In this document: positions 12,182 through 48,658 of the stretch, one piece after another | How the letters are laid out: each line of letters opens with the position of its first letter | Position numbering within the stretch: position 1 is the stretch's first letter | Source of the DNA: an uncultured Verrucomicrobiota bacterium | GTDB lineage: Bacteria; Verrucomicrobiota; Kiritimatiellia; CAIKKV01; CAITUY01 | NCBI GenBank assembly: GCA_964535015.1 | Contig: CAZHRU010000003.1 | Location: 3,940-67,939, forward strand | Direction: 5' to 3' | Length of the DNA: 64,000 nt | The notes under the pieces: model-generated | What the model saw: only the letters and a program-made list of their open reading frames with translations | What the model was told of the DNA's origin: nothing | Databases searched by the model: none | Program-made: the position numbers and the translations under genes

Positions 12182-13361
12182 CGTGGCGGATAAAGCGACC
12201 ACGGAGACTGCGCGTCCCAAGGTTCTGGTTATTGATGATGAACGGGGTCCGCGTGAGAGTCTGCGGATCCTGTTGAAGACGGAATACGACGTGTTGTGCG
12301 CCGAGTCGGTGGATGTCGGGGTTACGATGTTGAAGGAGCATCATCCCGACATGGTGATCATGGACATCCGGATGCCGGGCAAGAGCGGCATTGAGGGGTT
12401 GAAGGCGATCCGCGACCTGGACACGGCGGTGTCCGTGGTGATGTTCACTGGATTCGGGGCGCTGGAAACGGCGCAGGAAGCCATCCGGCTGGGGGCCAAC
12501 GATTATCTCAAGAAGCCGTTCGATGCCTTTGAAATCCGTGAGGTGGTGCACCGGTATGTGCGGCGCACTCAGGTGGAAAGGCGCCGACGGCAGACCGTTG
12601 ATGAACTGGGGCAACTCAATCAGACGCTCAAGGAAGAGTTGGTGCGGAAAGAGCATCTGGCGGTTCTGGGGCGGAAGTCCGCGGAACTGATGCACGACAT
12701 ACGGCAGCCGTTGACGGCGGTCACGGCGTATGTGGACCTGTTGTCCTCCGAGTTGAAGGACGTCCAGACCCATTTTGGGGACCGCTGGCAGGAGACCTCG
12801 GCGTACCTTGATAAAATCGAAAATGGCGCGGAACGGTGCAGGCGACTGGCGGACATGTGGCTGGACATCAGCCGTGGGAAACTGAACCGCGCACCGATTC
12901 GGGTTCAGGAGATTGGTGATGCCGTGGTGCATGACTGTCGTTCGCTGGTTGACGAGAGGAAGGTGGTCCTGATGGTCGAGATGGATGATGGAGCCACTGT
13001 GATCAATGTTGACAGGATGCAGTACACGCGGGCGCTTCAGAATCTCCTGGTGAATGCCGTTGAGGCGGTTCAACCTGGCACTGGACGGGTGAAGGTGTGG
13101 TGCCGGTGTGATGGGGGACAGGTTGAACTGGGTGTTGAGGATAACGGCTGCGGGATGAGTCCGGAGCAAATCAAGCGTTCGGTGGAGCCTTTCTTCAGCA
13201 CCAAACCGGGAACGGGAACGGGTCTTGGGTTGTTCATTGCGCGTCAGGCGGTGGAAGCGCATGGTGGCACGATGCGGATTGAGAGTGAGACTGGCAAGGG
13301 GACGAGGATCACGATAACGGCGCCCTGTGGTGATAATACAAGTAGTCAGAATCCAGAATGA
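12165..13361 (+). CDS. Hybrid two-component protein: receiver domain fused to HisKA/HATPase_c kinase core. Alternative GTG start at 12183.
   Basis: REC domain KVLVIDDERGPRESL...MDIRMPGKSG. H-box LMHDIRQPLTAVTAYVDLL. ATPase EDNGCGMSPEQIKRSVEPFFSTKPGTGTGLGLFIARQ. Confidence 0.8.
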   Translation: MAAHSDVADKATTETARPKVLVIDDERGPRESLRILLKTEYDVLCAESVDVGVTMLKEHHPDMVIMDIRMPGKSGIEGLKAIRDLDTAVSVVMFTGFGALETAQEAIRLGANDYLKKPFDAFEIREVVHRYVRRTQVERRRRQTVDELGQLNQTLKEELVRKEHLAVLGRKSAELMHDIRQPLTAVTAYVDLLSSELKDVQTHFGDRWQETSAYLDKIENGAERCRRLADMWLDISRGKLNRAPIRVQEIGDAVVHDCRSLVDERKVVLMVEMDDGATVINVDRMQYTRALQNLLVNAVEAVQPGTGRVKVWCRCDGGQVELGVEDNGCGMSPEQIKRSVEPFFSTKPGTGTGLGLFIARQAVEAHGGTMRIESETGKGTRITITAPCGDNTSSQNPE

Positions 13362-13393
13362 ATCACCGACGAGCGCAAAGGCTAGTGTGCAAA

Positions 13394-13420
13394 GGGAGTG
13401 AGTTTATTGCTCCCTATTCT
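13394..13420 (+). terminator. Putative bidirectional terminator hairpin between convergent genes.
   Basis: Stem-loop GGGAG-tgagtttattg-CTCCC followed by TATTCT. It is flanked by an imperfect inverted repeat cagaatccagaa / ttctgaattctg (13346-13440). Confidence 0.45.
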
Positions 13421-15117
13421 GAACCCTGACTTCTGAATTCTGAATACCCATCCGGTAATGCCGTATGGTTGATGGAACGGGCGAGATCGCTGATGGTGTC
13501 CGTGTCGCCTGAGAAGAAGGCGCCGAGGGCCGTGTCACGGAAGAGGCCAGCCTCCATGCCGGCCTGAACGCTCATCAGGTAGGTTTCGTCGCTGATGGAG
13601 GTGGGGATTCCGAGGCGACCGACTTTGCGGGCGAATGCGCCTGTCATCCCCAGCACCTTGCGGTAGGAGCGCCCGTCAATTTCGATGGGCATGGAGTTCC
13701 AGAAGCGGGGAGGCAACTGGAGTTTGACTTTCCAGGTCATGGCTACGTTGAGGTACTGGTCGGGGTCGGCGAACCGGATACGGTACTGGTCGGGCGACTG
13801 GAACCAGGCGGTTCGTGGGGCGACGATGGGTGCCTGAAGCATGAGGGAATGGAGTCCGACATTTTGAAGCAAGGTGAGAGTCTCCGCTTCCGACTGAGCG
13901 GTTTCGCCTGGACAGGGGAAGATCACGCTGCCGACGGTGAAGATTCCTGCGGCCTTGCATCGGAGGAGGGCGCGCCGGGTATCCTCGACCCGAATGCCTT
14001 TGCGTAGCGCATCCAGGATGGGTTGGGAGCCGGACTCGATGCCAAAGAAGAGGGAGACGCATCCGGACCGGCGAATGGTTTCAAAATCCGCGTCATCGGC
14101 TTCCCGGATATGGGCGAAGGAGGCGTAGCGCAGGGGGAGTTTTTCGTTCAAGGTGGCCCGTGCGAATTCGTTAAGGAGGGTATAGGGCGTGCAGGAGCCT
14201 GCGAAACGGAAGGCCCGGATCCCGTACCGGTGATCCAAGTCCCTGACTTCCGCCAGGAGGCGGGTAATACTTTTGAGGCGGACGCTCTTGTTGCTTTTCA
14301 CGGGGTGGACGCAGAAGGTGCAGGCGTTGCGGCAACCGCGGCTTTCGTCGATCACCATGATTTTGATTTTCTCGTCGCCCGCCATGGCGGGATAGACGGC
14401 GGGGTCGTAGATGGGGAGGGGAAGGTCGTCCAGATTGGCCACCATGAGTTCGTCGGTAAAGCGGATAGTGCCGCCGGGTTCCATGAAGATCAAATTGGGG
14501 ATTTCGCCCAGGGTCTTGTTTTCGGCGCCGTGGCGAGCGAGCATGACGATGGTGTGTTCGCCCTCGCCGTGGGCGAGGGCGTCGAAGACGGGGTAGCGGC
14601 GCAGGATGCGGTCCATAAAGAGATCCACATGCGGACCGCCGCCGAAGATGCGGAGGTGCGGGTGGCGATGACGCAGGATGGAGGCGAGGCGGGCGGAGCC
14701 CTCGAGGCCATCGCCATTCCAGAGTTTAAAGCCCACGGCATCGATGTGGTGTTCTTCGACGGCATCGGAAAGTTCGGCGCCGATGATCTCAATGGCCTGT
14801 TGCTGGAGGTGGCGGCGTTCGGTTTCGGCGCGTTGCAGAATCGGCAGGGCGACCAGGCGGCGCAGGGCGGTTAGAGGGCCGGGGTCCGGTTGGCGGAGGG
14901 CCTGCCACTCGCGGGCGAGGCGATGGCGGAGATCTGGGGAGGTCATCCGGCGAATCGTTCCGACGGTAGAGAAGTCGAGGATGCGGACGGTGCGACCGTC
15001 CTTGAAGAGGGCGCCGGCCAGGTTGGCCAGGCCGTTGTCGGGCATCAGGCTGTTGGGTGCGAACGGATACCCGGCATAGTTGACGAGCAGCCAGTTCTGG
15101 AGTGGTTTAGTCGGCAT
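13414..15117 (-). CDS. B12-binding-domain radical SAM enzyme (class B radical SAM; methyltransferase or other cobalamin-dependent radical enzyme).
   Basis: CxxxCxxC motif CRNACTFC. Rossmann-like N-terminal cobalamin-binding domain. 3-nt spacing from the upstream paralogue. Confidence 0.8.
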   Translation of the reverse strand: MPTKPLQNWLLVNYAGYPFAPNSLMPDNGLANLAGALFKDGRTVRILDFSTVGTIRRMTSPDLRHRLAREWQALRQPDPGPLTALRRLVALPILQRAETERRHLQQQAIEIIGAELSDAVEEHHIDAVGFKLWNGDGLEGSARLASILRHRHPHLRIFGGGPHVDLFMDRILRRYPVFDALAHGEGEHTIVMLARHGAENKTLGEIPNLIFMEPGGTIRFTDELMVANLDDLPLPIYDPAVYPAMAGDEKIKIMVIDESRGCRNACTFCVHPVKSNKSVRLKSITRLLAEVRDLDHRYGIRAFRFAGSCTPYTLLNEFARATLNEKLPLRYASFAHIREADDADFETIRRSGCVSLFFGIESGSQPILDALRKGIRVEDTRRALLRCKAAGIFTVGSVIFPCPGETAQSEAETLTLLQNVGLHSLMLQAPIVAPRTAWFQSPDQYRIRFADPDQYLNVAMTWKVKLQLPPRFWNSMPIEIDGRSYRKVLGMTGAFARKVGRLGIPTSISDETYLMSVQAGMEAGLFRDTALGAFFSGDTDTISDLARSINHTALPDGYSEFRSQGSE

Positions 15118-20639: not shown

Positions 20640-21377
20640 TTACGGGGCGGAGTCGATGGCGTAGTCGAGGGTCACGACGGCCTTGGCGGTCTTCTCAATG
20701 GAGGAGGTGTCGTACTCGCCATATCCGGAAGTGTCGGTGGAGTGCCGTTCGGTGATCTGAAAGACGCCCTGTTGCGCGGAGATCAGGGAGCCCACTTTGC
20801 CTTTGCTGCCTTTGGCGAGGGCCAGGGCACGACGGTAACCGTCATCGGTCGCCTGGGCGAGTAACCGGAGTTTCGTATCCTTCAGATCGGTGACCATGAA
20901 CATGGGGGCGGAGGCCCTGATATCCACATCGTCCCGGATCAGGTCCGTGATGCGGGTGGCGGTGTCACGGATGAGGACGACATTGGTGGAGGTGACGGTA
21001 ATGTCCTGGGTTACATCGTAATATTCGGTCTCGTTGGTTTCTTTGCCTTGGAGATCGCGTTTGGCGACTTTGGAGTTGTTGATGGTGTGAAGTACCGTTT
21101 CACTGTCGCGCAGACCCATTTGTTTTATGAGGGCGAGGGTGGCGTTGCGGCTGGACTGCAGTTTGTCGTAGGCGTCTTTCATGCTGTTCCCGCGCGCGGA
21201 ACAGGTGCAGGAGAATTTGCCGACATCGGAGGTGATATCGGCCTCGGCGTAACCTTTCACGGTGATGGCCTGTTCATGGCGGATGCGGAGGAAGAACTTG
21301 GAGAGCATCGAGGCCGACAGGATCATGCCTGCCGCCAGGATGAGGGCGGCGAGGGAGAGTTTCATCAGGTTATTCAT
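20640..21377 (-). CDS. SIMPL-domain (DUF541; YggE / 26 kDa periplasmic immunogenic protein family) protein.
   Basis: Signal peptide MNNLMKLSLAALILAAG. Real start at 21377; the track ORF is 5'-extended. Family-like segments ...ITVKGYAE...VTQDITVTS.... Confidence 0.65.
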   Translation of the reverse strand: MNNLMKLSLAALILAAGMILSASMLSKFFLRIRHEQAITVKGYAEADITSDVGKFSCTCSARGNSMKDAYDKLQSSRNATLALIKQMGLRDSETVLHTINNSKVAKRDLQGKETNETEYYDVTQDITVTSTNVVLIRDTATRITDLIRDDVDIRASAPMFMVTDLKDTKLRLLAQATDDGYRRALALAKGSKGKVGSLISAQQGVFQITERHSTDTSGYGEYDTSSIEKTAKAVVTLDYAIDSAP

Positions 21378-23247
21378 GGGGGGCCTTTGGGTTTGAGGTG
21401 TTTGTGTTATGGAGGCGAAGGATGGTTTCGACCACTTTGGCGGGGGAGAGGATATCGGTGTCGATCTGGTGGGGTATGGATCCGTACAGGGATTTTCGTT
21501 TTTCGAGCAACTCCCGGATACGCTGGAGGCGGTCCTGCTCCTCAAGGAGGGGGCGGTGGTTTGCCTTGGCGGTGCGCTTGAAGATGGTATCGGGCGAGGC
21601 AGTCAGGCAGACCATCAGGCCGGTGCGCTGGTAATCGCGGATGTTGTCGGGGTTAAGGACGACCCCGCCGCCACAACCGATCACCAGTCCCTGGCGGGCG
21701 GATAATTCCTTGGTGAGTTCGCGTTCCATGTTGCGGAAATGGGGTTCGCCCTCCTCGGCAAAGATACGGGTGATGGATTTGCCGGCTCGCGCCTCGATCA
21801 TGTGGTCCATGTCGATGAACTCCATGTTGAGTCGGTTGGCCAGTTGTTTGCCGACGGTGGTTTTTCCGGTTCCCATAAAGCCCATGAGGACGATGTTCTT
21901 TTGGGAAGGATTGATGGTTGATGGTTGATGGTTGATGGAAGAGGAGAAGACCTGGATGCCGTCGCGGAAGGTCATGACGGCGCGTCCCTGGAGGGACCAG
22001 CCTTCGAACGGGGTGTTGCGGGATTTCGAGGCAAAGGAGTCGGCATGGACAGTCCATTCGGTGTTCAGGTCGAGGAGGACCAGGTTGGCGGGTTGGCCCA
22101 GGGCGAGGCTGGGGGGTGGCAGGCCCAGGATGGCGGCGGGGCCGGTGGTCCAGCGGGCCACCCAGTCCGTCAGGGAAAGGAGTCCTTTGCGGACGAGGAG
22201 GGAGAAGGTGACGCCGACGGCGGTTTCGAGGCCGATGACGCCGAAGGGGGCCCCGGTGAAACCGCGGGCCTTGGAAGCGGCGGTGTGGGGCGCGTGATCG
22301 GTGGCGAAGCAGGCGATGGTGCCATCAACGAGGCCATGTATGAGTTCCTCGCGATCGGCGAAGGATCGCAGGGGTGGATTCATCTTGAAGGCATCCGCAC
22401 AGTCGGGGCGGACGTCGTCATCGGTCAGGGCGAGATGATGGGGGGTCAGTTCGGCAGAGACGTGGAGTCCGCGTTGTTGGGCGTTGCGGATCAGTCTGAC
22501 GGATTCACCGGCGGAGAGGTGTTGGATATGGATGGCGCCGCCGGTGGTTTCGGCCAGGCGGATATCGCGGGCGACGATGGCGGTCTCGGCTTCGGAGGGA
22601 ATGCCGGGCAGGTTGAGGGTTTGGGATCGGAGTCCATCATGCATGACGCCGTTGCCGGCGAGGCGCGGGTCGAGGGCGTGATCCATGAGCGGGTGACCGG
22701 TGGCGGCAGAGCGCCGCATGGCTTCCTCCATGAGGGAGGTATTGGTGACGGTGCAACCGTCGTCGGTAAAGGCCACGGCGCCGGCCCGGGCAAGCGCCTC
22801 GATATCGGTGAGGGCGTGGCCGGCGCGGTTGCGGGTGATGCAGGGGGCGGGCAGGACACGGGCGAGGTTGGCGGCGGCGGCGCGGGTGGCGAGGGTGGCG
22901 ATCTCGGCCGGGCAATCCATGGCGGGATTGGTGTTTGGCATGGCGACGATGGTGGTGAAGCCGCCTTGGACAGCGGCCCGGCAGGCGGTTTCGACGGATT
23001 CCGCCGCTTCGTTGCCGGGCTGGCGCAAATGGACATGCAGGTCAATCAGGCCCGGCACGGCCACAAGGTTGGTGCCGTCAATGACGGTACAGTCCGGGGG
23101 AAGGGAGGAATGGTTGATGGTTAATGGTTGATGGAGAATGGGGAGAGGGGCAAAGACGCCGTTTTGGATGAAGAGGTCGCCGATGAAATCCCGGTTTGAG
23201 ACGGGGTCCACGATGCGGGCGTTCTTGATATACCATGAAGGGTTCAT
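21370..23247 (-). CDS. pyrC: Dihydroorotase (class I amidohydrolase, PyrC-like) fused in-frame to a C-terminal shikimate kinase (AroK) domain. Alternatively, two genes whose separation was erased by a repeat insertion.
   Basis: DHOase motifs VPGLIDLHVHLRQPG and ATDHAPH. After ...AVMTFRDGIQVF the linker SSSINHQPSTINPSQK is encoded by (TTGATGG)4. AroK P-loop NIVLMGFMGTGKTTVG with no intervening stop. Real start MNPSWYIKNARIVDP at 23247. Confidence 0.7.
   Translation of the reverse strand: MNPSWYIKNARIVDPVSNRDFIGDLFIQNGVFAPLPILHQPLTINHSSLPPDCTVIDGTNLVAVPGLIDLHVHLRQPGNEAAESVETACRAAVQGGFTTIVAMPNTNPAMDCPAEIATLATRAAAANLARVLPAPCITRNRAGHALTDIEALARAGAVAFTDDGCTVTNTSLMEEAMRRSAATGHPLMDHALDPRLAGNGVMHDGLRSQTLNLPGIPSEAETAIVARDIRLAETTGGAIHIQHLSAGESVRLIRNAQQRGLHVSAELTPHHLALTDDDVRPDCADAFKMNPPLRSFADREELIHGLVDGTIACFATDHAPHTAASKARGFTGAPFGVIGLETAVGVTFSLLVRKGLLSLTDWVARWTTGPAAILGLPPPSLALGQPANLVLLDLNTEWTVHADSFASKSRNTPFEGWSLQGRAVMTFRDGIQVFSSSINHQPSTINPSQKNIVLMGFMGTGKTTVGKQLANRLNMEFIDMDHMIEARAGKSITRIFAEEGEPHFRNMERELTKELSARQGLVIGCGGGVVLNPDNIRDYQRTGLMVCLTASPDTIFKRTAKANHRPLLEEQDRLQRIRELLEKRKSLYGSIPHQIDTDILSPAKVVETILRLHNTNTSNPKAPHE
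21911..21938. repeat. Tandem heptanucleotide repeat (TTGATGG)x4, located in-frame at the PyrC/AroK junction.
   Basis: Direct reading: ttgatggttgatggttgatggttgatgg. Confidence 0.9.
23109..23141. repeat. Degenerate heptamer tract (aatgg ttgatgg ttaatgg ttgatgg agaatgg) inserted in-frame in the N-terminal loop of PyrC.
   Basis: Encodes the extra PILHQPLTINHSS segment between conserved DHOase beta-strands. Same family as the 21911 and 26127 tracts. Confidence 0.85.
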
Positions 23248-23352
23248 ATGTCGGACTTGATGTATACACCAGCGGCGGCTTGACAGAAAAGCGATAAATG
23301 GTAGTTTGAACCCCTTTTCAGTGGGATTGCAGAGGTTAGTGAGGGACAAACG

Positions 23353-23487
23353 ATGAAGATGACGTATCAGCCGAAGAAGAAGAAGCGCCAGCGCAAGTGT
23401 GGTTTCAGGAAACGTATGAAGACGGTTGGAGGCCGCAGGGTGATTGCCAGTCGCCGTCAAAAGGGTCGGAAAAAGCTTTCCGAGTAA
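23353..23487 (+). CDS. rpmH: 50S ribosomal protein L34.
   Basis: Not in the ORF track (44 aa). Translation [44 protein letters not shown] matches the L34 consensus, and rnpA lies downstream. Confidence 0.9.
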
Positions 23488-24328: not shown

Positions 24329-26137
24329 ATGAGCAAGCAGAAATTACCGATCAAAGACATCCTGATAATCGCGGCGCTGTTTGGCGCCATGTTGGCCTGG
24401 GGGCCTGTGTACCAGAAGTTCCTGGCACCGCCGCCCGTGGCGGTGACGCCCGGCGTTGTCACGGAGGCCACCACTAATGCGGTGCCGCCGCCAGTCGAGG
24501 TAGTGGCGCCAGTCGTCGTCAAGGCGCAACCGGCGGTGGTGGATGCGCCGGTGTTGCAGGCGGCCACCACTGCGCGGAGGCCCGAGGAAACCTTCGTCAT
24601 CAGCAACCAGTTTATTCATGCGACCCTGACGTCGCGCGGGGGCGGCGTGGTGTCCGTTGAGTTGCCGTCTTTTTCGGTGACCAAGAAGGATCTGCGTCCG
24701 GTGGTGTTGGATTTCAAACGGTTCCCGGCACTGGCGTACGAAGGCTGGGAAGGATTGGATGTCGGCGCTGATTATTCGATCACGGTGCTTTCCAACGGTG
24801 TGGCGGCCCGGTTGGAAGCGACGCGGGCGGACGGGGTCCGGTTGGAGCGCCATATTGCGCTGGGCGAACGTTACCTGCTGACGGTGCAGGATCGTCTGAT
24901 CAACACGGCTGGCGAGGTGCGGGCGGTACCGGCGGTGGCGATGACATTGGGCGACATGGAGATGCTCGAGGGTGAGGAGCGGATGACCGGGGTGGAGTTT
25001 CTGGGGATTGACTCCCTGCCGTCGGCGGGTGGCGGAGGGGTGCGGCACTGGATGAGCAAGCGGTGGTTTTCGGATGATCTGACGGTGGCGGACTATTTTC
25101 AGGAGGAACCGATTCGCGGTCACGGTTGCATTGGCCGGCCGAAGATGACCAAACCGCTGCCACACCGCGTCCGGGAGCGGATCAGCCAGAACATGGATTG
25201 GGTGGCGGCGAGGAACAAGTATTTCGTGCAGATCCTGGCGCCGCAAGGCGGGGCGGTGGGGTGTGATCTGATTGCCGACCGGGAGGTGGATCCCACGGAG
25301 GATCCCGCGCAGAGCCGGTCATGGGCCAGTGTGGCGGTGCCTTTGCGCGTGGCGGGTGCGGTGCGGTTCCCTGAACGGGTGCTGGCGCCGGGCGAGGCGG
25401 CGGTGCGTTCGCTGGAGTACTATGTCGGGCCGAAGGAGCTTTCCACCATCAGGCCGCTGGGTCGTCACATGAAGGAAGTGATGGACTTCGGAACGTTGAA
25501 GTGGGTTTGCGAGATTCTGGTTGTGGCGCTGACCTGGCTATACGCGGTGATTCCCAACTACGGGGTGGCGATCATCCTGTTGACCCTGATCGTGCGGGTG
25601 ATCTTCTGGCCCCTGACGCACAAGGGTACGGAGAGTATGAAGCGGATGCAGGAACTGCAGCCGAAGGTGAAGGCGTTGCAGGATCAATACCGCGACAAGC
25701 CGCAGAAGCTTCAGCAGGAGACCATGGCGTTATACCGGGAAAACAAGGTCAATCCGCTGGGCGGGTGTCTGCCGATGCTGATCCAGATTCCGGTGTTCTT
25801 TGCTTTGTTCAATGTGCTGCGCAGCGGGATTGAGTTGCGTTATGCGGGGTTCCTGTGGATTGGCGACTTGAGCGCCGCGGAGAACCTGTTGGCGGGGGTG
25901 TTGCCTTTCCCGATCAACATCCTGCCGCTCGTGATGGCGGCCACGCAGGCGTGGCAGCAGCATCTGACGCCTTCGGCGGGCGACCCGGCGCAACAGAAGA
26001 TGATGATGTTCATGCCGGTGATCATGTTGCTGTTCCTGTACTCCATGCCGTCAGGGCTGGTGTTGTACTGGACGGCCAACCAGGTGATGATGATCGTCCA
26101 GTTGTTATGGCAGCGGCGGATGAAGAAGAATGGTTAA
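24329..26137 (+). CDS. yidC: Membrane protein insertase YidC.
   Basis: N-terminal TM segment. Conserved C-terminal insertase core YGVAIILLTLIVRVIFWPLT...NPLGGCLPMLIQIPVFFALF. The stop TAA lies inside a heptamer tract. Confidence 0.9.
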   Translation: MSKQKLPIKDILIIAALFGAMLAWGPVYQKFLAPPPVAVTPGVVTEATTNAVPPPVEVVAPVVVKAQPAVVDAPVLQAATTARRPEETFVISNQFIHATLTSRGGGVVSVELPSFSVTKKDLRPVVLDFKRFPALAYEGWEGLDVGADYSITVLSNGVAARLEATRADGVRLERHIALGERYLLTVQDRLINTAGEVRAVPAVAMTLGDMEMLEGEERMTGVEFLGIDSLPSAGGGGVRHWMSKRWFSDDLTVADYFQEEPIRGHGCIGRPKMTKPLPHRVRERISQNMDWVAARNKYFVQILAPQGGAVGCDLIADREVDPTEDPAQSRSWASVAVPLRVAGAVRFPERVLAPGEAAVRSLEYYVGPKELSTIRPLGRHMKEVMDFGTLKWVCEILVVALTWLYAVIPNYGVAIILLTLIVRVIFWPLTHKGTESMKRMQELQPKVKALQDQYRDKPQKLQQETMALYRENKVNPLGGCLPMLIQIPVFFALFNVLRSGIELRYAGFLWIGDLSAAENLLAGVLPFPINILPLVMAATQAWQQHLTPSAGDPAQQKMMMFMPVIMLLFLYSMPSGLVLYWTANQVMMIVQLLWQRRMKKNG

Positions 26138-26154
26138 TGGTTCATGGTTGATGG
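26127..26154. repeat. Heptamer tract agaatgg ttaatgg ttcatgg ttgatgg between yidC and plsY.
   Basis: Same (W)T(N)ATGG heptamer family as the tracts in pyrC. Contains the yidC stop and the first in-frame ATG of the plsY ORF. Confidence 0.85.
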
Positions 26155-27919: not shown

Positions 27920-28135
27920 GGTCATGGCTGGTGAGTTTGCCGGACGCTTCCCGCATCCACCCCCGTTGCTCTACTTATATGATCGCATATTCCTTGAAAA
28001 ACGGATGTCAGGAGTCCGTTAAATCATGCATAAGCCGGGACGGCGAATGCCGCCCCGTAATCCGATTTCAGGCCCAGGCTTCTTCAATGAGAAAAGAACA
28101 CCTTGATCCGGGCCAAGGATTGGGGACATCGCGCT

Positions 28136-29431
28136 TTATCCGGCGAACACGGCGCGGTGGCCATCCGGGCCGGCCTTTTCGGCGGCGCGGGTGATTTCCT
28201 CGCGGGCGATGGCGGCCCAGCGGTCAAAGCGTTCGGGGTGGTTCTCGCAGGTATGGGTGTCCTTCAGAATGAAGTCGAGTCGGCACCCGTTGTCCATGGC
28301 GGCTTCCAGTCCGGCGCGCAATTCCCCGCGGATGAGGGTTTCGTCGAACGATCCGACAAGGTGGGAGGGTTGGGGTTTCCAGCACATGACGAAGTTACCC
28401 TTCAGGCGTTCGGCACAGCGACGCAGGTCGGACCAGGGCGAAATGGAGATGCGGCGCATGCCGGGCAGTGCCGTGACGGCGTCAAGTTTGTGGGTCAGGT
28501 CCTCGCAGCAGCCGTAGCAGTTCAGCGGGAAGGGTTCGAGGAGTTTCCGTTCGTATGAGAGGGCGAACTCCGCGTGCTGCTCGGGGCTGACTTGGGCCAG
28601 TTCTTGCGCTTCGGCGAGTGCCCAGCGGTCGCGGGTACGGACGCGGGCGGGATCGAACCCGGCGGCGGGCAGGCCGTCGACATAGCCATGGGCGCCCTGA
28701 TTGATCGCGGGGCCATCATGGTTGCTGGCGAGGAGGTTTTGTTGCAGGGCCTGGGTGAGAACCTTCTGATGGCCCTCGGTCAGGAAGTGCATGGCCTCAT
28801 GAAGGAAACCGGGATTCTCGTACATATCCACCATCACTTGTTCAAGGCCGCGAAGTTGGGTCCATTCTCCCATCAGGTGATAGTAGGGTTTGATGCCGCC
28901 GGTGAGTTTCACGGGGAGCAGGTCGCCGACGAGATCCCGTGTTCGGGCCAAGGCGGCCTCAGTGGCGGTTTCGTCGTAGGTGATCTCGGGGTGGTGCATC
29001 GTCTTGAGGTTTGCGGGTTCCTTGACCACCGGGTCAAAAGCCCATGCTCCTTGGGCCTGGGTGCTGTCGGTGTGTTGGGCTTTCAGGCCCCACCCGGTGG
29101 AGTGGATTCGTTTGGCAACCCTGATGTAGCCATCGGCGACGGCGTCGTCGCGCCAGTGCTGGTGTCCATAGAGGGTGGCGCGCAGGTCCAATTCCAGCCA
29201 GCGGTCGGGGCCATAGGTGCATTGGAGGGAGGCGTTGGGCAGGATTTCGCGCCAGGATCCTTCGGGGATGATCCGGAAGATCGGGCGGCAGGGCCGCAGG
29301 CTGTTATGGTCACGCCACAAGCGACGGCGTTCCTCCTGGATTGGCAGGTTGGCGATGTCGCGAAGTTGACGGCACAGGTCGCGGATGACGGTGCGGTCTT
29401 CCGGGCGGATGGCTGGAATGGGTGTACTCAT
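28136..29431 (-). CDS. Hypothetical protein, URO-D (uroporphyrinogen decarboxylase / MtaA-CmuA methyltransferase)-like fold suspected.
   Basis: Start MSTPIPAIRPEDR at 29431. Weak family-like segments (…EQVMVDMYENPGFLHEAMHFLTEGH…, …YGCCEDLTHKLDAVTALPGMRRISISPW…). No decisive motif. Confidence 0.45.
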   Translation of the reverse strand: MSTPIPAIRPEDRTVIRDLCRQLRDIANLPIQEERRRLWRDHNSLRPCRPIFRIIPEGSWREILPNASLQCTYGPDRWLELDLRATLYGHQHWRDDAVADGYIRVAKRIHSTGWGLKAQHTDSTQAQGAWAFDPVVKEPANLKTMHHPEITYDETATEAALARTRDLVGDLLPVKLTGGIKPYYHLMGEWTQLRGLEQVMVDMYENPGFLHEAMHFLTEGHQKVLTQALQQNLLASNHDGPAINQGAHGYVDGLPAAGFDPARVRTRDRWALAEAQELAQVSPEQHAEFALSYERKLLEPFPLNCYGCCEDLTHKLDAVTALPGMRRISISPWSDLRRCAERLKGNFVMCWKPQPSHLVGSFDETLIRGELRAGLEAAMDNGCRLDFILKDTHTCENHPERFDRWAAIAREEITRAAEKAGPDGHRAVFAG

Positions 29432-29571
29432 GGCGGGTGAGTGCGCCGAAAAGGCGGTGGTTATTCCAGCAGATTTCCCAAATTCGGAGTTTGTTCCTCT
29501 CATTGAAGTGCACCCGGTTGCATGGTAGTGTTCGCATTCAATGGGGCTTCACAACAAGGCGATGGTGCACA

Positions 29572-32550
29572 ATGAATAGAATAGATGGACTTGCGTCGGC
29601 GGGAAGCGAAACGCCGCTGGAGGGATTGAGCAAGAGTTACGCACTATTGAAACTGGCGGTGGGAGCCCCGGATCGTTTTGTGACATGGGACGCGATTGTA
29701 TTGACGGCGTCGAGCGAGGAGCAGGCGCGGTTGTACCGGCGGCATCTGGAGGAAGTGCGTGTCCGTGGATTGATCGCGGCGGCGACGCGGACGGTGGTGG
29801 TGGCGGATCCGGGCGGGATGCGGATCGGGAGCGGCGGGGCGACGCTGCATGCGTTGCGGGTGCTGGCGCAGGAGTACTCGGCAGAGGCGGTGGGCGGGTG
29901 GCGGGTGCTTTTGGTGCATGCGGGCGGGGATAGCCGGCGAGTGCCGTGGGCGAACGTGTTCGGGAAGTGTTTCATTCCGTTTCCTCTGTTGGCGGATCCC
30001 GACCAGGCGGTGCCGACGCTATTTGATCACCAGTTGGCGGTGGCGGCGCCGTTAGCGGGACGGATGCCGGGTGCGGGATTGGTGTCGCTGGCGGGGGATG
30101 TATTGCCGTTGCTGAACACGAGCCGGGTGGGGTTGGTGGCGGATGGTGCGGTGGTAGTGACGGCGGCGGAATCGCTGGATGTGGCGGGGCGGCACGGGGT
30201 GATCGTGGCGGACGGGGATGGGCGGGTGGTGGATCTTCTGCAGAAGGCGGACCCGGAGACGTTGGCGGCGCGGGGTGCGCTGGTGGGTGGGGGGGCGGCC
30301 TTGCTGGACACGGGGATCTACGCGTTCTGCGGGGAGGTGTACCGGCGGTTGGTGGGGTTGGCAGGCGAGACGCCGGACCCGGTCGTGGAATTGGTGGCGT
30401 CGCGGCGGGAGTGCAGTCTTTACGAGGAGATCGCGTCGGCACTGGTGGCGTCGCGTCGCGAGTGGGTGCAGGGGCGGCCACTGGGGCCCCGGTTGGTTGG
30501 TGCGTTGGGTGAGGGGGTGTTGTGGAACCGGACGGTGCCGGAGTTATATTTTGTCCACTTGGGGACGACGGCGGAGATTCTGAATCACTTTTCGTTGAAT
30601 TGGGAGGGGCGGATCGGGCGGGTGGTTTCGGCGGATGTGGCAGGGGCGTTGGGGTCAGCGGCCGTAGTCTGTGCGACGACGGCGGGGCGCGAGACGACGG
30701 TGGGGGACAACAGTTTTCTTTACGGTTGCCGGCTGACGGGGGAGACGGCGGTCGGGAGTCGGTGTGTGGTCATGGGGGTTCATAGCCGGGGGTTGCTGCG
30801 GGTTCCGCCGAATCTTTGCGTATGGCAGTTGCCGTTGCGGCGGCGGGGGAAAGGGGCGCGCCGGTTTGCGTCGGTCTGTTGCGGGGTGGATGACTGTCCG
30901 AAGGACGAGTGGACGGCGGGGACATTTTGTAACCGCGAGTTTGCCGGCTGGATGCGGTCGCACGGGGTGGAGGCGGATGAGTTGTGGGGGGCGGGGGTGG
31001 CGCGGACGTTGTGGCACGCGCGGTTGTTTGCGCGGGTGGGTGCGGACGACGGGTTGGTTGTGTTGGGGTGGTTGTGGGGTGATGGGACGAAGGGTGGCGA
31101 GGGGGCGGCGTTATGGCGGGGGGCGGAACGGTTGAGTCTGGCCGAGTTGCATGCGGAGGTGGATTTCGGGGAGGTGGCGGAACGGTTGGCTCGGGTGCAG
31201 GATGGATTGATTTTGGACATTATGGAAAGGACAGTCCGGCACGGGATGAACCGGAATGTGCGGGCGTTGATGGGGCAGGCGTCGCCTGCGGTGCGACGCA
31301 CGAAGGCGTGGCGTGGTGTGGTCTCGGCGGCGGAGGGATGCGTCGAAGGCGGGGGGAGCCGGTCGTTGCAGGTTGCGGCAGATTTGTTTTTGGCGGATGG
31401 CAGGGCGGATGAGGCAGCGGCGGCGGAGCGCAAGGCGTTTGAGGCGATTGGGCGGGAGGTCGGGCGGTATGTGAAGTCGTACGAGGCGGTCAGGGTGTCG
31501 GACCTGGTGCCCGGGACGGTGGAGGAGACGTGTTTGCCGGTGCGGTTCGATTTGGCGGGAGGGTGGAGCGATACGCCGCCGTATTGTCTGGAGAATCCGG
31601 CGCGGGTTTTGAATATGGCCGTGGAGTTCGGGGGGCGTCGTCCGGTCATGGCGCGGGTGACGGCGTTGGCGGAGCGGGAATGGCGTTTTTACCAGGAGGA
31701 TACGGGTTTGGTCGAGGTGGTGCGGCCGGGGGAAGGGACGGGGGTGACCAGTTCGCTATCGGATCCGTTTGTGTTGTTGAAAGCGGCCTTGCAGTTGACG
31801 GGGTATGGGGCGGGACGGGGGATTCATCAGGGGGTGGAGGTGCGGACGCACACGGGAGTCCCGAAAGGGAGTGGGTTGGGTACGAGTTCAATCCTGGGTG
31901 CGGCGCTGGTGAGTGCGTTGCAGAAGTTGGCAGGCCGCAGGTGTGATGCGGAACCTGTGAGTGAACTGGTGTTGGTGCTGGAGCAGCGGATCACGACTGG
32001 CGGCGGGTGGCAGGATCAGGTTGGCGGATTGATGCCGGGCGTGAAGTGCATCACGTCGGCGCCGGTGCAGCCGATGCGGCTGGTGATCGAGCCGGTGCCG
32101 TTGTTACGGGAGACGGCGGTGGAGTTGGAGTCGCGTCTGGTGATCGCGTACACGGGATTGGACCGGTTGGCGAAGAACGTATTGCAGATCGTGGTGGGGC
32201 GGTATTTGAGGCGGGAGCGACGGGCGTTGAATGCGGTCCGGCGGTTGGTGGAGTTGGCGGATGAGGGGCGTGAGGCGCTGGTGCTGGGGCGGTTGGATGA
32301 CGTGGGGCGGGTGATGGAGGAAGTGTGGCGGGTACACCAGGAGTTGGATCCGCACTGCAGCAATGCGGGCGTGGACGCGATGTTCGACAAGGTTGCGGAT
32401 CTGGCGTCGGGCTGGAAGTTGGCCGGTGCGGGTGGAGGCGGGTTCATGGGGGTGTTGGGCAAGGACCCGGAGGCGGCGGAGCGGATCCGGCGGACCCTGG
32501 CGGGGTTGGGCGCCGGCGTCAAGGTGTATGATTGGCGGCTGGCCACCTGA
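29572..32550 (+). CDS. Bifunctional L-fucokinase / fucose-1-phosphate guanylyltransferase-like protein (FKP-like): N-terminal nucleotidyltransferase-type domain plus C-terminal GHMP kinase.
   Basis: N-terminal segment GSGGATLHAL...LLVHAGGDSRR. C-terminal GHMP motif THTGVPKGSGLGTSSILGAALVSAL. ~990 aa as for Bacteroides FKP. Start MNRIDGL at 29572. Confidence 0.65.
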   Translation: MNRIDGLASAGSETPLEGLSKSYALLKLAVGAPDRFVTWDAIVLTASSEEQARLYRRHLEEVRVRGLIAAATRTVVVADPGGMRIGSGGATLHALRVLAQEYSAEAVGGWRVLLVHAGGDSRRVPWANVFGKCFIPFPLLADPDQAVPTLFDHQLAVAAPLAGRMPGAGLVSLAGDVLPLLNTSRVGLVADGAVVVTAAESLDVAGRHGVIVADGDGRVVDLLQKADPETLAARGALVGGGAALLDTGIYAFCGEVYRRLVGLAGETPDPVVELVASRRECSLYEEIASALVASRREWVQGRPLGPRLVGALGEGVLWNRTVPELYFVHLGTTAEILNHFSLNWEGRIGRVVSADVAGALGSAAVVCATTAGRETTVGDNSFLYGCRLTGETAVGSRCVVMGVHSRGLLRVPPNLCVWQLPLRRRGKGARRFASVCCGVDDCPKDEWTAGTFCNREFAGWMRSHGVEADELWGAGVARTLWHARLFARVGADDGLVVLGWLWGDGTKGGEGAALWRGAERLSLAELHAEVDFGEVAERLARVQDGLILDIMERTVRHGMNRNVRALMGQASPAVRRTKAWRGVVSAAEGCVEGGGSRSLQVAADLFLADGRADEAAAAERKAFEAIGREVGRYVKSYEAVRVSDLVPGTVEETCLPVRFDLAGGWSDTPPYCLENPARVLNMAVEFGGRRPVMARVTALAEREWRFYQEDTGLVEVVRPGEGTGVTSSLSDPFVLLKAALQLTGYGAGRGIHQGVEVRTHTGVPKGSGLGTSSILGAALVSALQKLAGRRCDAEPVSELVLVLEQRITTGGGWQDQVGGLMPGVKCITSAPVQPMRLVIEPVPLLRETAVELESRLVIAYTGLDRLAKNVLQIVVGRYLRRERRALNAVRRLVELADEGREALVLGRLDDVGRVMEEVWRVHQELDPHCSNAGVDAMFDKVADLASGWKLAGAGGGGFMGVLGKDPEAAERIRRTLAGLGAGVKVYDWRLAT

Positions 32551-32612
32551 ATCACGCATTCTGGTTTCGATGATCGTTGACTCCGGCCTCTGTTCGGGTA
32601 TCCTTTTCCGTC

Positions 32613-33890
32613 ATGAATATTCTTGTTGTGGGCGGAGGGGGTCGCGAACATACCCTCGTGTGGAAACTGGTGAATGACAGCCGCCGGCCGAAGGTGTTTT
32701 GCGCGCCCGGTAATGCCGGCACGGCGGAACTTGCCACGAATCTGGATATCGGCGCCGAGGATATTCCGGCGCTCATGAGCTGGGCCCGGGAGCACCGGCC
32801 CGACCTGACGGTGGTGGGCCCCGAAGCGCCGTTGTGCGCGGGATTGGTGGACCTTCTGGAAAAGGAAGGATTGAAGGCCTTTGGTCCGTCACGGGCCGCG
32901 GCCCAGATCGAGGGTAGCAAGGTCTTTGCCAAGGACATCATGGTGGCTGCCGGGGTGCCGACAGCGAAGGCGAGTTTCTTTACCGATGCCGCGCTGGCGC
33001 TGGACTTCGTTCGTTCCATTGGTGCGCCGCTGGTGATCAAGGCCGAGGGGTTGGCGGCGGGTAAAGGGGTGACGGTCTGCGCCACGGTGGAGGAGGCCGA
33101 ACGTGCGGTACGGGAGTCGCTTGTGGATGGCGCCTTTGGCGAAGCCGGCAAGCGGATTCTGGTGGAGGAGTTCCTGGAAGGGGAGGAGGCGTCCATTCTG
33201 GCGCTGACCGACGGGAAGCGGGTGGTGTTGCTGGCCACGGCACAGGATCACAAGCGGGTTTTCGATAACGATCAGGGGCCCAATACGGGAGGCATGGGCG
33301 CCTATTCGCCGGCGCCGGTGGTTACGGCGGAGATGTTCCCCGCCATCGAGCGCGACGTGTTCGGACCGACGCTGGCGGAACTTGAGTTGCGCGGCATTCA
33401 CTACAAGGGCGTGCTCTATGCGGGACTGATGATGACCAAGAAGGGGCCCAAGGTTCTGGAGTTCAACTGCCGGTTCGGCGATCCCGAGACGCAGGTGATT
33501 ATTCCGCGCCTTGCCGGCGACCTGATACCCGCGCTGGAGGCGTGCATTGATGGGACCCTGCGGCCGGAACTGGTGACCTGGCGGGCGGAGTCCTGCGTGT
33601 GTGTGGTGATGGCGGCGGGTGGATACCCGGGGACCTACCGGAAGGGCGACGAAATCCGGGGCCTCAAGGAGGCGGCGAAGGTCAAGCAGGCCGTGGTATT
33701 CCATGCGGGAACGGCGTTGAGCAAGGGGCGCGTGGTGACGGCCGGCGGGCGGGTGCTGGGGGTGACGGCGCTGGGCAGCGGGTTGAAGGAGGCGGTGGAC
33801 CAAGCCTATGAGGCGGTGACCCGGATTGATTTCGACGGGGCCATCTACCGCACGGATATTGCGGCGAAGGCGTTCGGAAGGAAACAGTAA
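32613..33890 (+). CDS. purD: Phosphoribosylamine--glycine ligase.
   Basis: N-terminal motif MNILVVGGGGREHTLVWKL. ATP-grasp core. Family segment ...GGMGAYSPAP.... Confidence 0.9.
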   Translation: MNILVVGGGGREHTLVWKLVNDSRRPKVFCAPGNAGTAELATNLDIGAEDIPALMSWAREHRPDLTVVGPEAPLCAGLVDLLEKEGLKAFGPSRAAAQIEGSKVFAKDIMVAAGVPTAKASFFTDAALALDFVRSIGAPLVIKAEGLAAGKGVTVCATVEEAERAVRESLVDGAFGEAGKRILVEEFLEGEEASILALTDGKRVVLLATAQDHKRVFDNDQGPNTGGMGAYSPAPVVTAEMFPAIERDVFGPTLAELELRGIHYKGVLYAGLMMTKKGPKVLEFNCRFGDPETQVIIPRLAGDLIPALEACIDGTLRPELVTWRAESCVCVVMAAGGYPGTYRKGDEIRGLKEAAKVKQAVVFHAGTALSKGRVVTAGGRVLGVTALGSGLKEAVDQAYEAVTRIDFDGAIYRTDIAAKAFGRKQ

Positions 33891-33918
33891 AGGGATTAAC
33901 CTTTAGAGAAAGGGACTT

Positions 33919-34434
33919 ATGAGTACAGCAGAAGTGGCGTTGGTGATGGGGAGTGATTCGGATTGGCCACTATTGGAGGACGCCGTCGGTGTTCTGGCCA
34001 AGTTTGAGGTGGAGAGTGAAGTACGCGTCATGTCGGCGCACCGGACGCCTGATTTGGCGGCGACGTTTTCCAAGCAGGCGGCGGGGCGCGGGCTTAAGGT
34101 AATCATTGCCGCGGCGGGCGGGGCGGCGCATCTGGCGGGCGTCATCGCGGCGCATACGACCCTTCCGGTTATCGGGATTCCGGTGGCCAGCAATCTCATG
34201 GGAGGCATGGATTCGCTGTTGTCCACGGTGCAGATGCCGGCGGGGATTCCCGTGGCGACGGTGGCGGTGGGGAAGAGCGGGGCCACGAATGCGGCGCTAC
34301 TGGCTGTTCAGATTCTGGCGCTGGGAAACCCGGCGTTGACGCGCAAGTTGGTTCAATACAAGAAGTCACTCGGGGAGAAAGTAAAGGCCGGCAACGCGCG
34401 GATCCAGATTGAGGCGGCGAAGAAGAAGGGGTGA
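33919..34434 (+). CDS. purE: N5-carboxyaminoimidazole ribonucleotide mutase.
   Basis: Family segment [18 protein letters not shown]...VMSAHRTPD...[23 protein letters not shown]. Confidence 0.9.
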
Positions 34435-34529
34435 GGGCTGGGGGTGTGAGTTGTGAATGGTGAATCGTGACAAGAATCCGGAGTTCAGAATCCAGAACGG
34501 ATAGTGAGACCATCCGTGCCGTCGGACGT

Positions 34530-44290: not shown

Positions 44291-44388
44291 TGGCGTCACG
44301 CCGTGACGTCCTACAGAATCCAGAATGTGTAGGACCGCACGGTGTGCGGTCGCAATCCAGAAGGGGTGGGGCCGCACGGTGTGCGGTC
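44291..44388. promoter_or_regulatory. Divergent promoter region carrying three palindromes: GTCACG-c-CGTGAC and two copies of CCGCACGG-T-GTGCGG(TC).
   Basis: Palindromes at 44293-44309, 44333-44351 and 44371-44388, ~40 bp apart. CAGAATCCAGAATG motif at 44314-44327. Confidence 0.5.
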
Positions 44389-44513
44389 GGAGTTTGCGTA
44401 TGGCCGCGCTGAGACGTGGAGAGGCGCGTGGGGGATTCGTGAAAAGTCGTGACTAATCCTGCGGAAACCGTTAAACAACCCGCGCTACACATCATGGAAA
44501 GGGTAGAATTCAC

Positions 44514-48473: not shown

Positions 48474-48658
48474 ACATGTCAGGGATGCCGTGGATGTTCA
48501 CCGTTTGCCTCCACCGGCGCAAGGCCGGTGGGCGGCGAAGTCACGGGGATGCCGGTGGGCGGCGAAGTCACGGGGATGCCGGTGGGCGGCGAAGTCACGG
48601 GGATGCCGTGGACGTTCAACGTTTGCCTCCACCGGCGCAAGGCCGGTGGGCGGCGAAG
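48474..48658. repeat. Complex tandem repeat: 27-bp unit GGTGGGCGGCGAAGTCACGGGGATGCC x3 (plus partial copies) interleaved with two 37-bp hairpin units (...GTTTGCCTCCACCGGC-GCAAG-GCCGGTGG...).
   Basis: Direct reading of 48482-48658. 8-bp perfect stems with GCAAG loops. Intergenic, between the amt and tetR promoters. The overlapping track ORFs 48430..48726 and 48467..48733 are repeat artefacts. Confidence 0.85.

Follow-up and report, generated by a model that had tools for sequence, protein, structure and literature searches.

Dihydroorotase and shikimate kinase are both known as parts of larger proteins. In CAD (carbamoyl-phosphate synthetase-aspartate transcarbamylase (ATCase)-dihydroorotase (DHOase)), in AROM and in the bacterial AroK-AroB protein, dihydroorotase or shikimate kinase is joined to another enzyme via a flexible linker. 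To our knowledge, the known fusions with these domains join steps of one pathway. Here we analyzed a stretch of 64,000 nucleotides from contig CAZHRU010000003.1 of an uncultured Verrucomicrobiota bacterium (called the window in the following; all positions refer to it). On its minus strand it carries a gene in which a predicted dihydroorotase (PyrC) is joined to a predicted shikimate kinase (AroK) through a heptanucleotide repeat. PyrC catalyzes step three of pyrimidine synthesis and AroK step five of the shikimate pathway, and the two pathways have no common intermediate. In contrast to CAD, AROM and AroK-AroB, the fusion described here connects pyrimidine with aromatic amino acid synthesis, which is best explained by gene adjacency. 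No published dihydroorotase-shikimate kinase fusion was found in a literature search. Overall, the locus is best explained as a genuine, conserved bifunctional pyrC-aroK gene which originated from overlapping neighbors and whose linker is made of heptamer repeats, and we hold this reading with considerable confidence. The gene belongs to a Kiritimatiellia-like lineage of the Planctomycetes-Verrucomicrobia-Chlamydiae (PVC) group.

In most bacterial genomes no other long simple repeats are as abundant as the heptamers (Mrazek 2007, as summarized in PMC4679880). The class is poorly understood, and polymerase slippage has been proposed as its origin (PMC4679880). The short tandemly repeated repetitive (STRR) sequences of cyanobacteria belong to it (Mazel 1990 and Mrazek 2007, as summarized in PMC4679880 and PMC4692102). 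For the TAACTGA repeats of Beggiatoaceae, cyanobacteria and Bacteroidetes it was reported that forward copies, which contain stops in all frames, lie on the stop codons of upstream genes or before start codons (MacGregor 2015, PMC4679880). Reverse copies are translated and are found at protein peripheries (PMC4679880). That article describes no repeat-joined enzyme pair, and the word fusion is absent from its text. The GGGAATC repeats of Xanthomonas lie between the same genes in related genomes and vary widely in length and sequence (Rehm 2015, PMC4692102). A literature search on tandem repeats in Kiritimatiellaeota found nothing relevant. The tracts described below belong to the known bacterial heptanucleotide simple repeats that gather at gene boundaries.

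The pyrC-aroK gene consists of a single reading frame of 625 codons which is open from end to end (Table 1). Pfam and NCBIfam profile searches detected a complete dihydroorotase at residues 6-435 and a complete shikimate kinase at residues 450-613. TIGR00857 was matched over residues 44-432 with 384.3 bits (cutoff 279). The PRK09357 models cover residues 6-435 and reach the profile ends (421/422 and 423/428), with scores below the equivalog cutoffs. The AroK part matched PF01202 at positions 1-156 of 159 (E 4e-45) and PRK13947 with 187.6 bits, which is below the curated equivalog cutoff of 204. In the PDB the PyrC part matched the dihydroorotases 3mpg, 3gri and 3d6n (E 1e-94 to 1e-100) as well as DHOase structures of CAD, and the AroK part matched the shikimate kinases 4y0a, 3vaa and 1kag. 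The PyrC motifs DLHVHLR, FTDDG, HIQHLS, TPHH and ATDHAPH align with 3mpg. Residues H71, H73, D162/D163, H243, H270/H271, D317 and H318 of PyrC are invariant in 38 fused homologs, and so are Walker A (G456-K462), DxD (D479/D481) and GGG (G526-G528) of AroK. To the PyrC residues we presumptively assign the metal-binding and catalytic roles which are general for the amidohydrolase fold. Judged by family profile and motifs, the first domain is a class I dihydroorotase; the full-length profile and the three motifs argue for a shikimate kinase of the AroK type (PF01202) as the second. A first-pass annotation of the window had described PyrC and AroK in one open reading frame (ORF) connected by (TTGATGG)4, and this holds, with both domains complete and a 100% match in Tandem Repeats Finder (TRF). 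Its estimate of ~75 kDa for the fusion is too high, as the predicted mass is ~68-69 kDa. An identical protein (P0122) is present in an NCBI-derived collection, and a 98% identical one with an identical linker (P0001) originates from an independent Logan assembly.

Table 1. Features of the pyrC-aroK locus and heptamer tracts in the 64-kb window.
Feature	Position	Strand	Details
PyrC-AroK fusion ORF	21370..23247	-	ATG 23247, stop 21370-21372, 625 aa
Predicted dihydroorotase (class I PyrC) domain, aa 1-436	21940..23247	-	Profile and PDB matches, invariant motifs
Interdomain linker, aa 437-450 (SSSINHQPSTINPSQK)	21898..21939	-	From PyrC profile end to AroK profile start
Exact (TTGATGG)4 simple repeat	21911..21938	+	TRF 4.0 copies, 100% match
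Predicted shikimate kinase (AroK) domain, aa 451-625	21373..21897	-	Beta-1 NIVLM, then P-loop GFMGTGKT
Degenerate heptamer tract in PyrC N-terminal loop	23108..23141	-	TRF 7-mer x3.6 at 88%; 14-mer x2.4 at 85%
aroK stop/SIMPL/DUF541 gene start overlap (ATGAATAA)	21370..21377	-	8 nt
Third TTGATGG-family tract	26128..26154	+	AATGGTT AATGGTT CATGGTT GATGG; "forward" orientation
Second-family heptamer tract (ATTCTGA/TCAGAAT)	13416..13447	+	C-terminal tail of minus-strand B12-binding radical SAM gene, stop-free orientation
Heptamer tract GTGAGTT GTGAATG GTGAAT	34445..34465	+	Fills 32-nt spacer between purE (AIRC) and S41 peptidase gene

On the coding strand the exact repeat encodes ...VFSSSINHQPSTINPSQKNIVLMGFMGTGKTT. 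The minus-strand reading, (CCATCAA)4, is free of stop codons in every frame, whereas the plus-strand reading, TTGATGG, contains TGA and ATG in all three frames. Read-through is thus limited to genes with the C/A-rich version of the repeat on their coding strand, such as pyrC-aroK. A second tract of the same family lies near the N-terminus of PyrC. Its minus strand reads CCATTCT CCATCAA CCATTAA CCATCAA CCATTCC and encodes PILHQPLTINHSS (aa 36-48), which adds 10 residues in comparison with outgroups. The first-pass annotation had correctly located this tract in frame and in a loop, with slightly different limits (23109-23141) and about 9 added residues. In an AlphaFold model built on 38 homologs (mean predicted local distance difference test (pLDDT) score 82.7) residues 34-45 and 436-450 are coil, pLDDT values below 50 were obtained for residues 39-41 and 439-447, and beta-1 of the kinase comprises residues 451-455. 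Since the model places both tract peptides in low-confidence coil, they are loop and linker material.

A search of the protein collection revealed about 45 protein clusters of 61-78% identity which share the Amidohydro and SKI architecture. The next matches were proteins with PyrC alone that carry the name Kiritimatiellia or Verrucomicrobia. Between the window and two relatives the ratio of nonsynonymous to synonymous substitution rates (dN/dS) was 0.18-0.21 for PyrC and 0.14-0.17 for AroK. Both halves are under purifying selection. The gene rpmH, which is divergent from pyrC-aroK, was kept in all loci examined. The number and divergence of the clusters and these dN/dS values (0.14-0.21) do not agree with a recent disruption, one of the options of the first-pass annotation. 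We also considered that the fusion is an assembly or sequencing artefact: the tract would conceal a stop codon or a shift of frame, and in the real genome pyrC and aroK would be separate. Repeats do attract errors, and in some relatives the metagenome contig breaks off inside the tract or close to it. However, the in-frame architecture is present in independent assemblies from NCBI, JGI, ENA and Logan, the tract of 28 nt is well below the read length, and a separate AroK would find no ATG, GTG or TTG upstream of beta-1. Because the independent assemblies agree, recent disruption is excluded and an artefact is hardly credible. Three metagenome contigs of fused relatives (L165, L166 and L167) end at the tract or within ~100 nt upstream of the linker tract, which fits assembly breaks caused by population heterogeneity. 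Three proteins annotated as shikimate kinase from MGFMGTGK onwards (P0134, P0147 and P0148) were examined as candidate frame-broken alleles and were rejected, as in each case the contig stops at the tract or shortly upstream and truncates the gene.

A further question is whether AroK is made separately by internal initiation, so that the fused reading frame would be only formal. Two in-frame ATG codons (Met455 and Met458) are found at the start of the kinase (L-M-G-F-M-G). Initiation at either of them would cost the kinase the greater part of beta-1 (aa 451-455), neither is preceded by a purine-rich ribosome-binding site, and unfused orthologs start 2-6 codons upstream of NI[VI]LMGF. Consequently, we regard internal initiation as very improbable. 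The same observations argue against the loss of a stop codon with a reinitiating aroK, which had been suggested earlier: on the coding strand the tract contains no ATG, GTG or TTG, no obvious ribosome-binding site was seen by eye, and initiation at the internal ATG (MGFMGTGK) would delete the first beta strand. A programmed ribosomal frameshift does not apply either, since PyrC and AroK share a single uninterrupted frame both in the window and in the ~45 homolog clusters.

In 39 fused homologs the linker is the hypervariable position of the protein. It comprises ~6-40 residues without conserved sequence, and the kinase part begins at N-I-[VI]-L-M-G-F in every fused protein. Many linkers are translations of heptamer arrays (DLKSEISNLRSHQN, DLTSHILHLTPQN, DLKSQILNIKYQN, SINHQPLISSS, LSDNQQPTTNNPKTN). 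On the DNA level, the retrieved loci carry arrays of ATCTCAA, ACCAACA, CCATCAA or CCCTCAA, and CTCACAT is also among the units; across the clade the linker is usually a heptamer repeat translated from its stop-free strand. The arrays change rapidly. Within one 90% cluster the linker differs by 13 residues (P0123 versus P0002), and within another the repeat unit itself is different (P0128 versus P0005). The first-pass annotation had named the same fusion without repeats in close relatives as evidence against its reading; relatives do share the fusion, mostly with repeats of changing sequence. One 65% identical locus (L128) contains an in-frame TAA after PyrC, followed 18 nt further on by an ATG that keeps this frame. 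Close to the fused clade, L128 thus seems to have split genes or genes that were never fused.

Unfused relatives were found as well. In L005/L006, L168 and L169, pyrC and aroK are adjacent to each other beside a divergent rpmH, and the two genes overlap by 4, 8 and 20 nt. The unfused aroK is in a different frame from pyrC, as in CCC ATG ACC, where a TGA stop lies inside. No repeat is present at the pyrC/aroK junction of these loci. Their AroK proteins begin with MTTQAPNIILMGF, MRNIVLMGF or MTSKARNIVLMGF. In the window, the end of aroK and the start of the following SIMPL/DUF541 gene form a coupled junction of the same kind (compare the 8-nt overlap in L168). The comparison of orthologous loci which had been proposed as a check was thus informative: the genes are fused in a whole clade, and separate and overlapping in unfused relatives. 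The adjacency in unfused relatives is a sufficient explanation for the pairing, and the enzymes appear to be joined because they were operon neighbors and not because their pathways are linked.

In a neighbor-joining tree of the PyrC domain the clade of the window (window, P0121/P0004, P0002 and P0124) is sister to the unfused P0045-48 and P0051 (bootstrap 82%), and the large fused clade is sister to the unfused P0062 (94%). Monophyly of all fused sequences was recovered in 0 of 200 replicates. As the fused sequences are not monophyletic, the tree provisionally suggests at least two fusion or fission events. Independent fusions are somewhat more likely than fissions, because the unfused overlaps are tidy (4-8 nt).

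These observations are consistent with the following course of events. The ancestral state would have been neighboring pyrC and aroK genes in different frames with a stop/start overlap of 4-20 nt, and in the fused lineages this overlap would have been replaced by a heptanucleotide repeat. If 7 or 14 nt were inserted ahead of the pyrC stop, the pyrC frame could run on into the overlapping aroK. In the stop-free orientation (CCATCAA and its relatives) the ribosome would read from PyrC straight into AroK, and the peptide encoded by the repeat would link the two enzymes as a disordered segment. In the tolerant surface loop near the N-terminus of PyrC, another tract of this family may have expanded. 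Both tracts seem to keep changing in steps of 7 or 14 nt, for which replication slippage is the most likely cause. AroK would stay in frame only if the length changes are divisible by 3, and one natural allele appears to have lost the frame by one extra 14-nt unit.

This allele was found in L001 (JGI sample 3300044611), the closest non-identical relative, whose PyrC is 88% identical over the aligned part. The corresponding in-frame allele, P0121 (607 aa), is 90% identical to the protein of the window over the full length. The junction tract of L001 is (CCCCATCAACCATT)x3.4, with 56 nt between the conserved flanks compared with 42 nt in the window. Its aroK is out of frame and beta-1 has no usable upstream start codon; the AroK frame is otherwise intact and identical to that of the in-frame allele. 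Two further loci are nearly identical to L001, namely L163 with 99.7% over 11.3 kb and L164 with 99.5% over 4.3 kb. The sole gap between them and L001 comprises 14 nt, which is one unit of the junction tract, and its absence restores the fused frame (42 nt). L001, L163 and L164 represent three samples from one lake population, with two assemblies in frame and one out of frame. Apparently, natural changes of the tract comprise whole units, and AroK can probably be silenced in this way. The L001 allele may be a deleterious variant of low frequency, a switch or an error of the consensus sequence. A metagenome scan for the two conserved flanks at a spacing of 30-60 nt gave no match, although this pattern recognizes both the window and L001, so that the scanned collection lacks these samples.

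The latter observation raises the question of whether the junction tract is a phase-variable switch in which slippage toggles between the PyrC-AroK fusion and PyrC alone. The near-identical contigs which differ by one 14-nt unit, the intact AroK frame and a unit length that is not a multiple of 3 are in agreement with this proposal. In the contingency loci of Haemophilus, Neisseria and Moraxella (PMC4679880, PMC12721329) a non-triplet unit likewise lies in a reading frame, with in- and out-of-frame alleles in one population. However, those loci carry long arrays in surface or virulence genes and their high-rate switching is proven, whereas the arrays found here are short and lie in housekeeping genes with one off allele. 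The tracts have 3-6 units, for which slippage rates should be low, and biosynthetic genes have no obvious gain from switching. Only one out-of-frame allele was found among ~50 sequences, the apparent separate shikimate kinases are contig ends, and the allele itself may be deleterious and rare, or may result from an assembly error. A switch is therefore quite unlikely.

The N-terminal tract varies in the same manner. The segment between FIxNG and PGxID has 37 residues in outgroups and in the large fused clade, 40 in L001/L163 with one CCCCATCAACCATT unit, 47 in the window and 56 in L002. At a protein identity of 88-90%, the window thus exceeds L001 by exactly 21 nt or three units. A core, CCCCATCAACCAT, is common to all three local tracts, and one single copy occurs at 13465; the shared core hints at local copying between tract sites. 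The first-pass annotation had proposed that the two tracts bracket pyrC, and we considered pyrC as a cassette between direct repeats, either as the footprint of a mobile element or as a recombination unit. Two tracts of one family do flank most of pyrC, and the core is shared. In contrast, the N-terminal tract is situated within the conserved fold instead of at a border of it, the large fused clade lacks this tract, and L001, whose protein is 88-90% identical, has one unit of it. The synteny of pyrC is stable in all relatives with or without tracts. In addition, tracts of the same family occur outside pyrC, the third one 3 kb away at yidC|plsY besides the single core copy at 13465. The bracketing looks coincidental, and a cassette is an extremely improbable explanation.

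The most serious alternative concerns the order of events. A small indel could first have removed the stop codon and aligned the frames, and the heptamers would then have colonized a tolerant, disordered linker. Several fused homologs have very short linkers without heptamer signature, L131 holds a different type of insert, and the same tracts are found in tolerant loops or linkers of unrelated proteins and in the N-terminal loop of PyrC. These cases show that tracts can enter existing coding sequence. On the other hand, an insertion of 7 or 14 nt is exactly the shift which joins pyrC to an overlapping out-of-frame aroK, and heptamer linkers were found in both fused clades and at no junction of the unfused sister lineages. 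Later colonization is thus a serious possibility, to which we give somewhat less than an even chance. The repeat-mediated fusion considered in the first-pass annotation remains its best-fitting option, given that the unfused overlaps lack repeats and that fused loci carry heptamers or their remains at the junction. For the causal role of the repeat in it, the chances are about even.

Several observations weigh against the reading of a conserved fusion gene with a heptamer-repeat linker. Some fused relatives have short linkers without any heptamer trace (SAPLPN, PLSASN), and the linker of L131 (~5400-5530) is a 123-nt insert without heptamer periodicity; both keep the odds between cause and colonization about even. 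The tree is a simple one, based on one domain and with bootstrap values of 82-94% at the key nodes. The out-of-frame allele was seen in a single metagenome assembly, and an error in assembly or consensus may have produced it. The production of the protein as one chain of ~68 kDa is predicted from the ORF, and the genome-wide behavior of the repeats is extrapolated from the 64-kb window and up to ~10 kb of the relatives' flanks. The insert of L131 is a different kind of small insertion at the linker hotspot; it carries an inverted repeat (ATTGGCAGCA...TGCTGCCAAT).

Heptamer repeats are clearly enriched in the window. A double unit with up to 2 mismatches occurred 7 times compared with 0.97 expected. 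Six period-7 tracts with at least 3 copies were counted versus 0.39 (standard deviation 0.60, maximum 2) in 100 dinucleotide shuffles, an approximately 15-fold excess. As in STRR-like repeats, tandem 7-nt units are thus present above chance, and their length and sequence are polymorphic between close relatives (differences of 14 nt, 21 nt and 13 aa). Of the five A/T-containing tracts, four coincide with the boundary of a gene or domain (yidC|plsY, purE|S41 peptidase, the radical-SAM C-terminal tail and pyrC|aroK) and one is in a surface loop, which is a small sample. The yidC|plsY tract, which the first-pass annotation had not listed, includes the stop codon of yidC (TAA, 26135-26137) and ends 7 nt before the ATG of plsY (26162). 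This junction also holds a heptamer tract in L001 (CCATTAA) and in L002, where the unit is different (ATTCTGA). The purE|S41 peptidase tract is in forward orientation and ends 1 nt ahead of the start codon of the S41 peptidase gene. The sequence TCAGAAT(C/T)CAGAA was found 4 times in the window compared with 0.12 expected (13346-13366 (+), 13416-13447 (-), 34485-34497 (+) and 44313-44325 (+)). The pair 13346/13431 is inverted, ~70 nt apart and located between convergent genes, and it could form a long hairpin.

The tracts share with STRR-like heptamers the short 7-nt arrays, the over-representation, the concentration at boundaries and the variability in close relatives. They differ in their units (CCATCAA/TTGATGG, TCAGAAT and ATCTCAA), in the Kiritimatiellia-like PVC host and in a tract which is permanent in conserved coding sequence. 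With the TAACTGA repeats they have in common forward stops together with a placement at junctions (compare yidC|plsY), reverse copies that can be translated and the recurrence of the unit in distant phyla. In contrast, the units found here are TTGATGG, AATGGTT, ATTCTGA and GTGAATG, which places the tracts outside the TAACTGA family, and a whole clade has retained the reverse tract as the linker between two domains. The GGGAATC and GGGGA(T/C)T repeats of Xanthomonas and Nostoc (PMC4692102) form inverted pairs in convergent intergenic regions, similar to 13346/13431. Those repeats form G-quadruplexes, whereas TTGATGG contains no runs of three G.

The same repeat is not restricted to this lineage. 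In a scan with one genome per species (CCATCAA)3 was found in at least 120 places, with Bacteroidota, Cyanobacteria, Planctomycetota, Verrucomicrobiota, Lentisphaerae, Kiritimatiellia, Acidobacteriota and others among the matches listed. Among these, (CCATCAA)3 is usually flanked by the sister units CTATCAA, CCATTAA and CCAACAA. In four loci (L077 at 2286-2306, L116, L016 and L014) it lies inside long ORFs in an apparent loop or linker. On visual inspection, the encoded proteins look like EpmA (Kiritimatiellia), DNA polymerase I, IleRS (Kuenenia) and a two-domain glycosyltransferase (Verrucomicrobiota). The repeat (CCATCAA)3 was present in 39 stretches of viral contigs, compared with 18, 10 and 1 for three controls of the same composition. 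CCATCAA was considered as a uniquely favored unit, which had to be rejected, since this crude control in viral contigs indicates a mild preference only.

The locus provides a concrete comparative case in which a non-triplet repeat becomes a permanent protein linker and may make or break a gene fusion. One locus appears to represent the ancestral overlap, the fused state in two or more clades, a descendant with split genes and a frameshift allele that still exists in nature. The case extends the heptanucleotide repeats, which have mainly been described for cyanobacteria, Beggiatoaceae, Xanthomonas and Burkholderia, to Kiritimatiellia-like bacteria. For annotation it means that "dihydroorotase" entries of ~600 residues in these genomes are bifunctional and that frame breaks at such tracts may be real polymorphisms. 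No new biological principle is involved and the enzymes are ordinary. A more far-reaching proposal is that heptamers act as a recurrent and reversible engine of gene fusion and fission. With a stop-free strand and units which each shift the frame by one, they could weld overlapping neighbors, which a later slip would separate or silence again. The pyrC/aroK junction would then have been fused at least twice and would still be switching, as in the 14-nt allele, and strand asymmetry would set which genes are exposed, namely those with a C-rich coding strand. We regard this proposal as speculative and rather unlikely.

The strand asymmetry of the window is pronounced. The GC skew, (G-C)/(G+C), is +0.2 to +0.35 over the first ~40 kb irrespective of gene direction and strongest at 28000-34000, and it is positive throughout. 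For a genome with 61% GC this is very high. The skew is shared by L001, L002 and L077 (|skew| 0.23); L077 is titled Kiritimatiellia bacterium and shares its sample with L001. The large, more distant fused clade has values of 0.04-0.08. Despite the rpmH-rnpA-yidC cluster, the window contains no switch of the skew and thus no origin. Its CCATCAA-type copies are all on the C-rich strand. A general dependence of tract orientation on GC skew was rejected, as the CCATCAA strand was the C-rich one in 52 of 123 tracts from many phyla (p = 0.10). The match of orientation and skew holds only within the strongly skewed clade.

Upstream of its start codon the pyrC frame remains open on the minus strand (23248-23460), with a TTG at 23460, and runs antisense across rpmH. 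A longer reading from this TTG was rejected because the N-termini of homologs (MNPSWYIK, MHSSWYIK) do not support it. Four homologs (P0009, P0014, P0027 and P0124) are annotated with false N-terminal extensions of 70-130 residues, which look conserved only because rpmH is conserved. Between 40000 and 50000 the skew falls to 0.05-0.08 compared with 0.2-0.3 over the first ~40 kb and 0.10-0.20 beyond, and this segment may have been recently acquired or inverted. A 37-nt tandem repeat in two copies with a GC-rich hairpin (GGACCGCACGGTGTGCGGTC) was found at 44317-44389, and a perfect 27-nt tandem repeat in 3.1 copies (GCCGGTGGGCGGCGAAGTCACGGGGAT) at 48524-48608.

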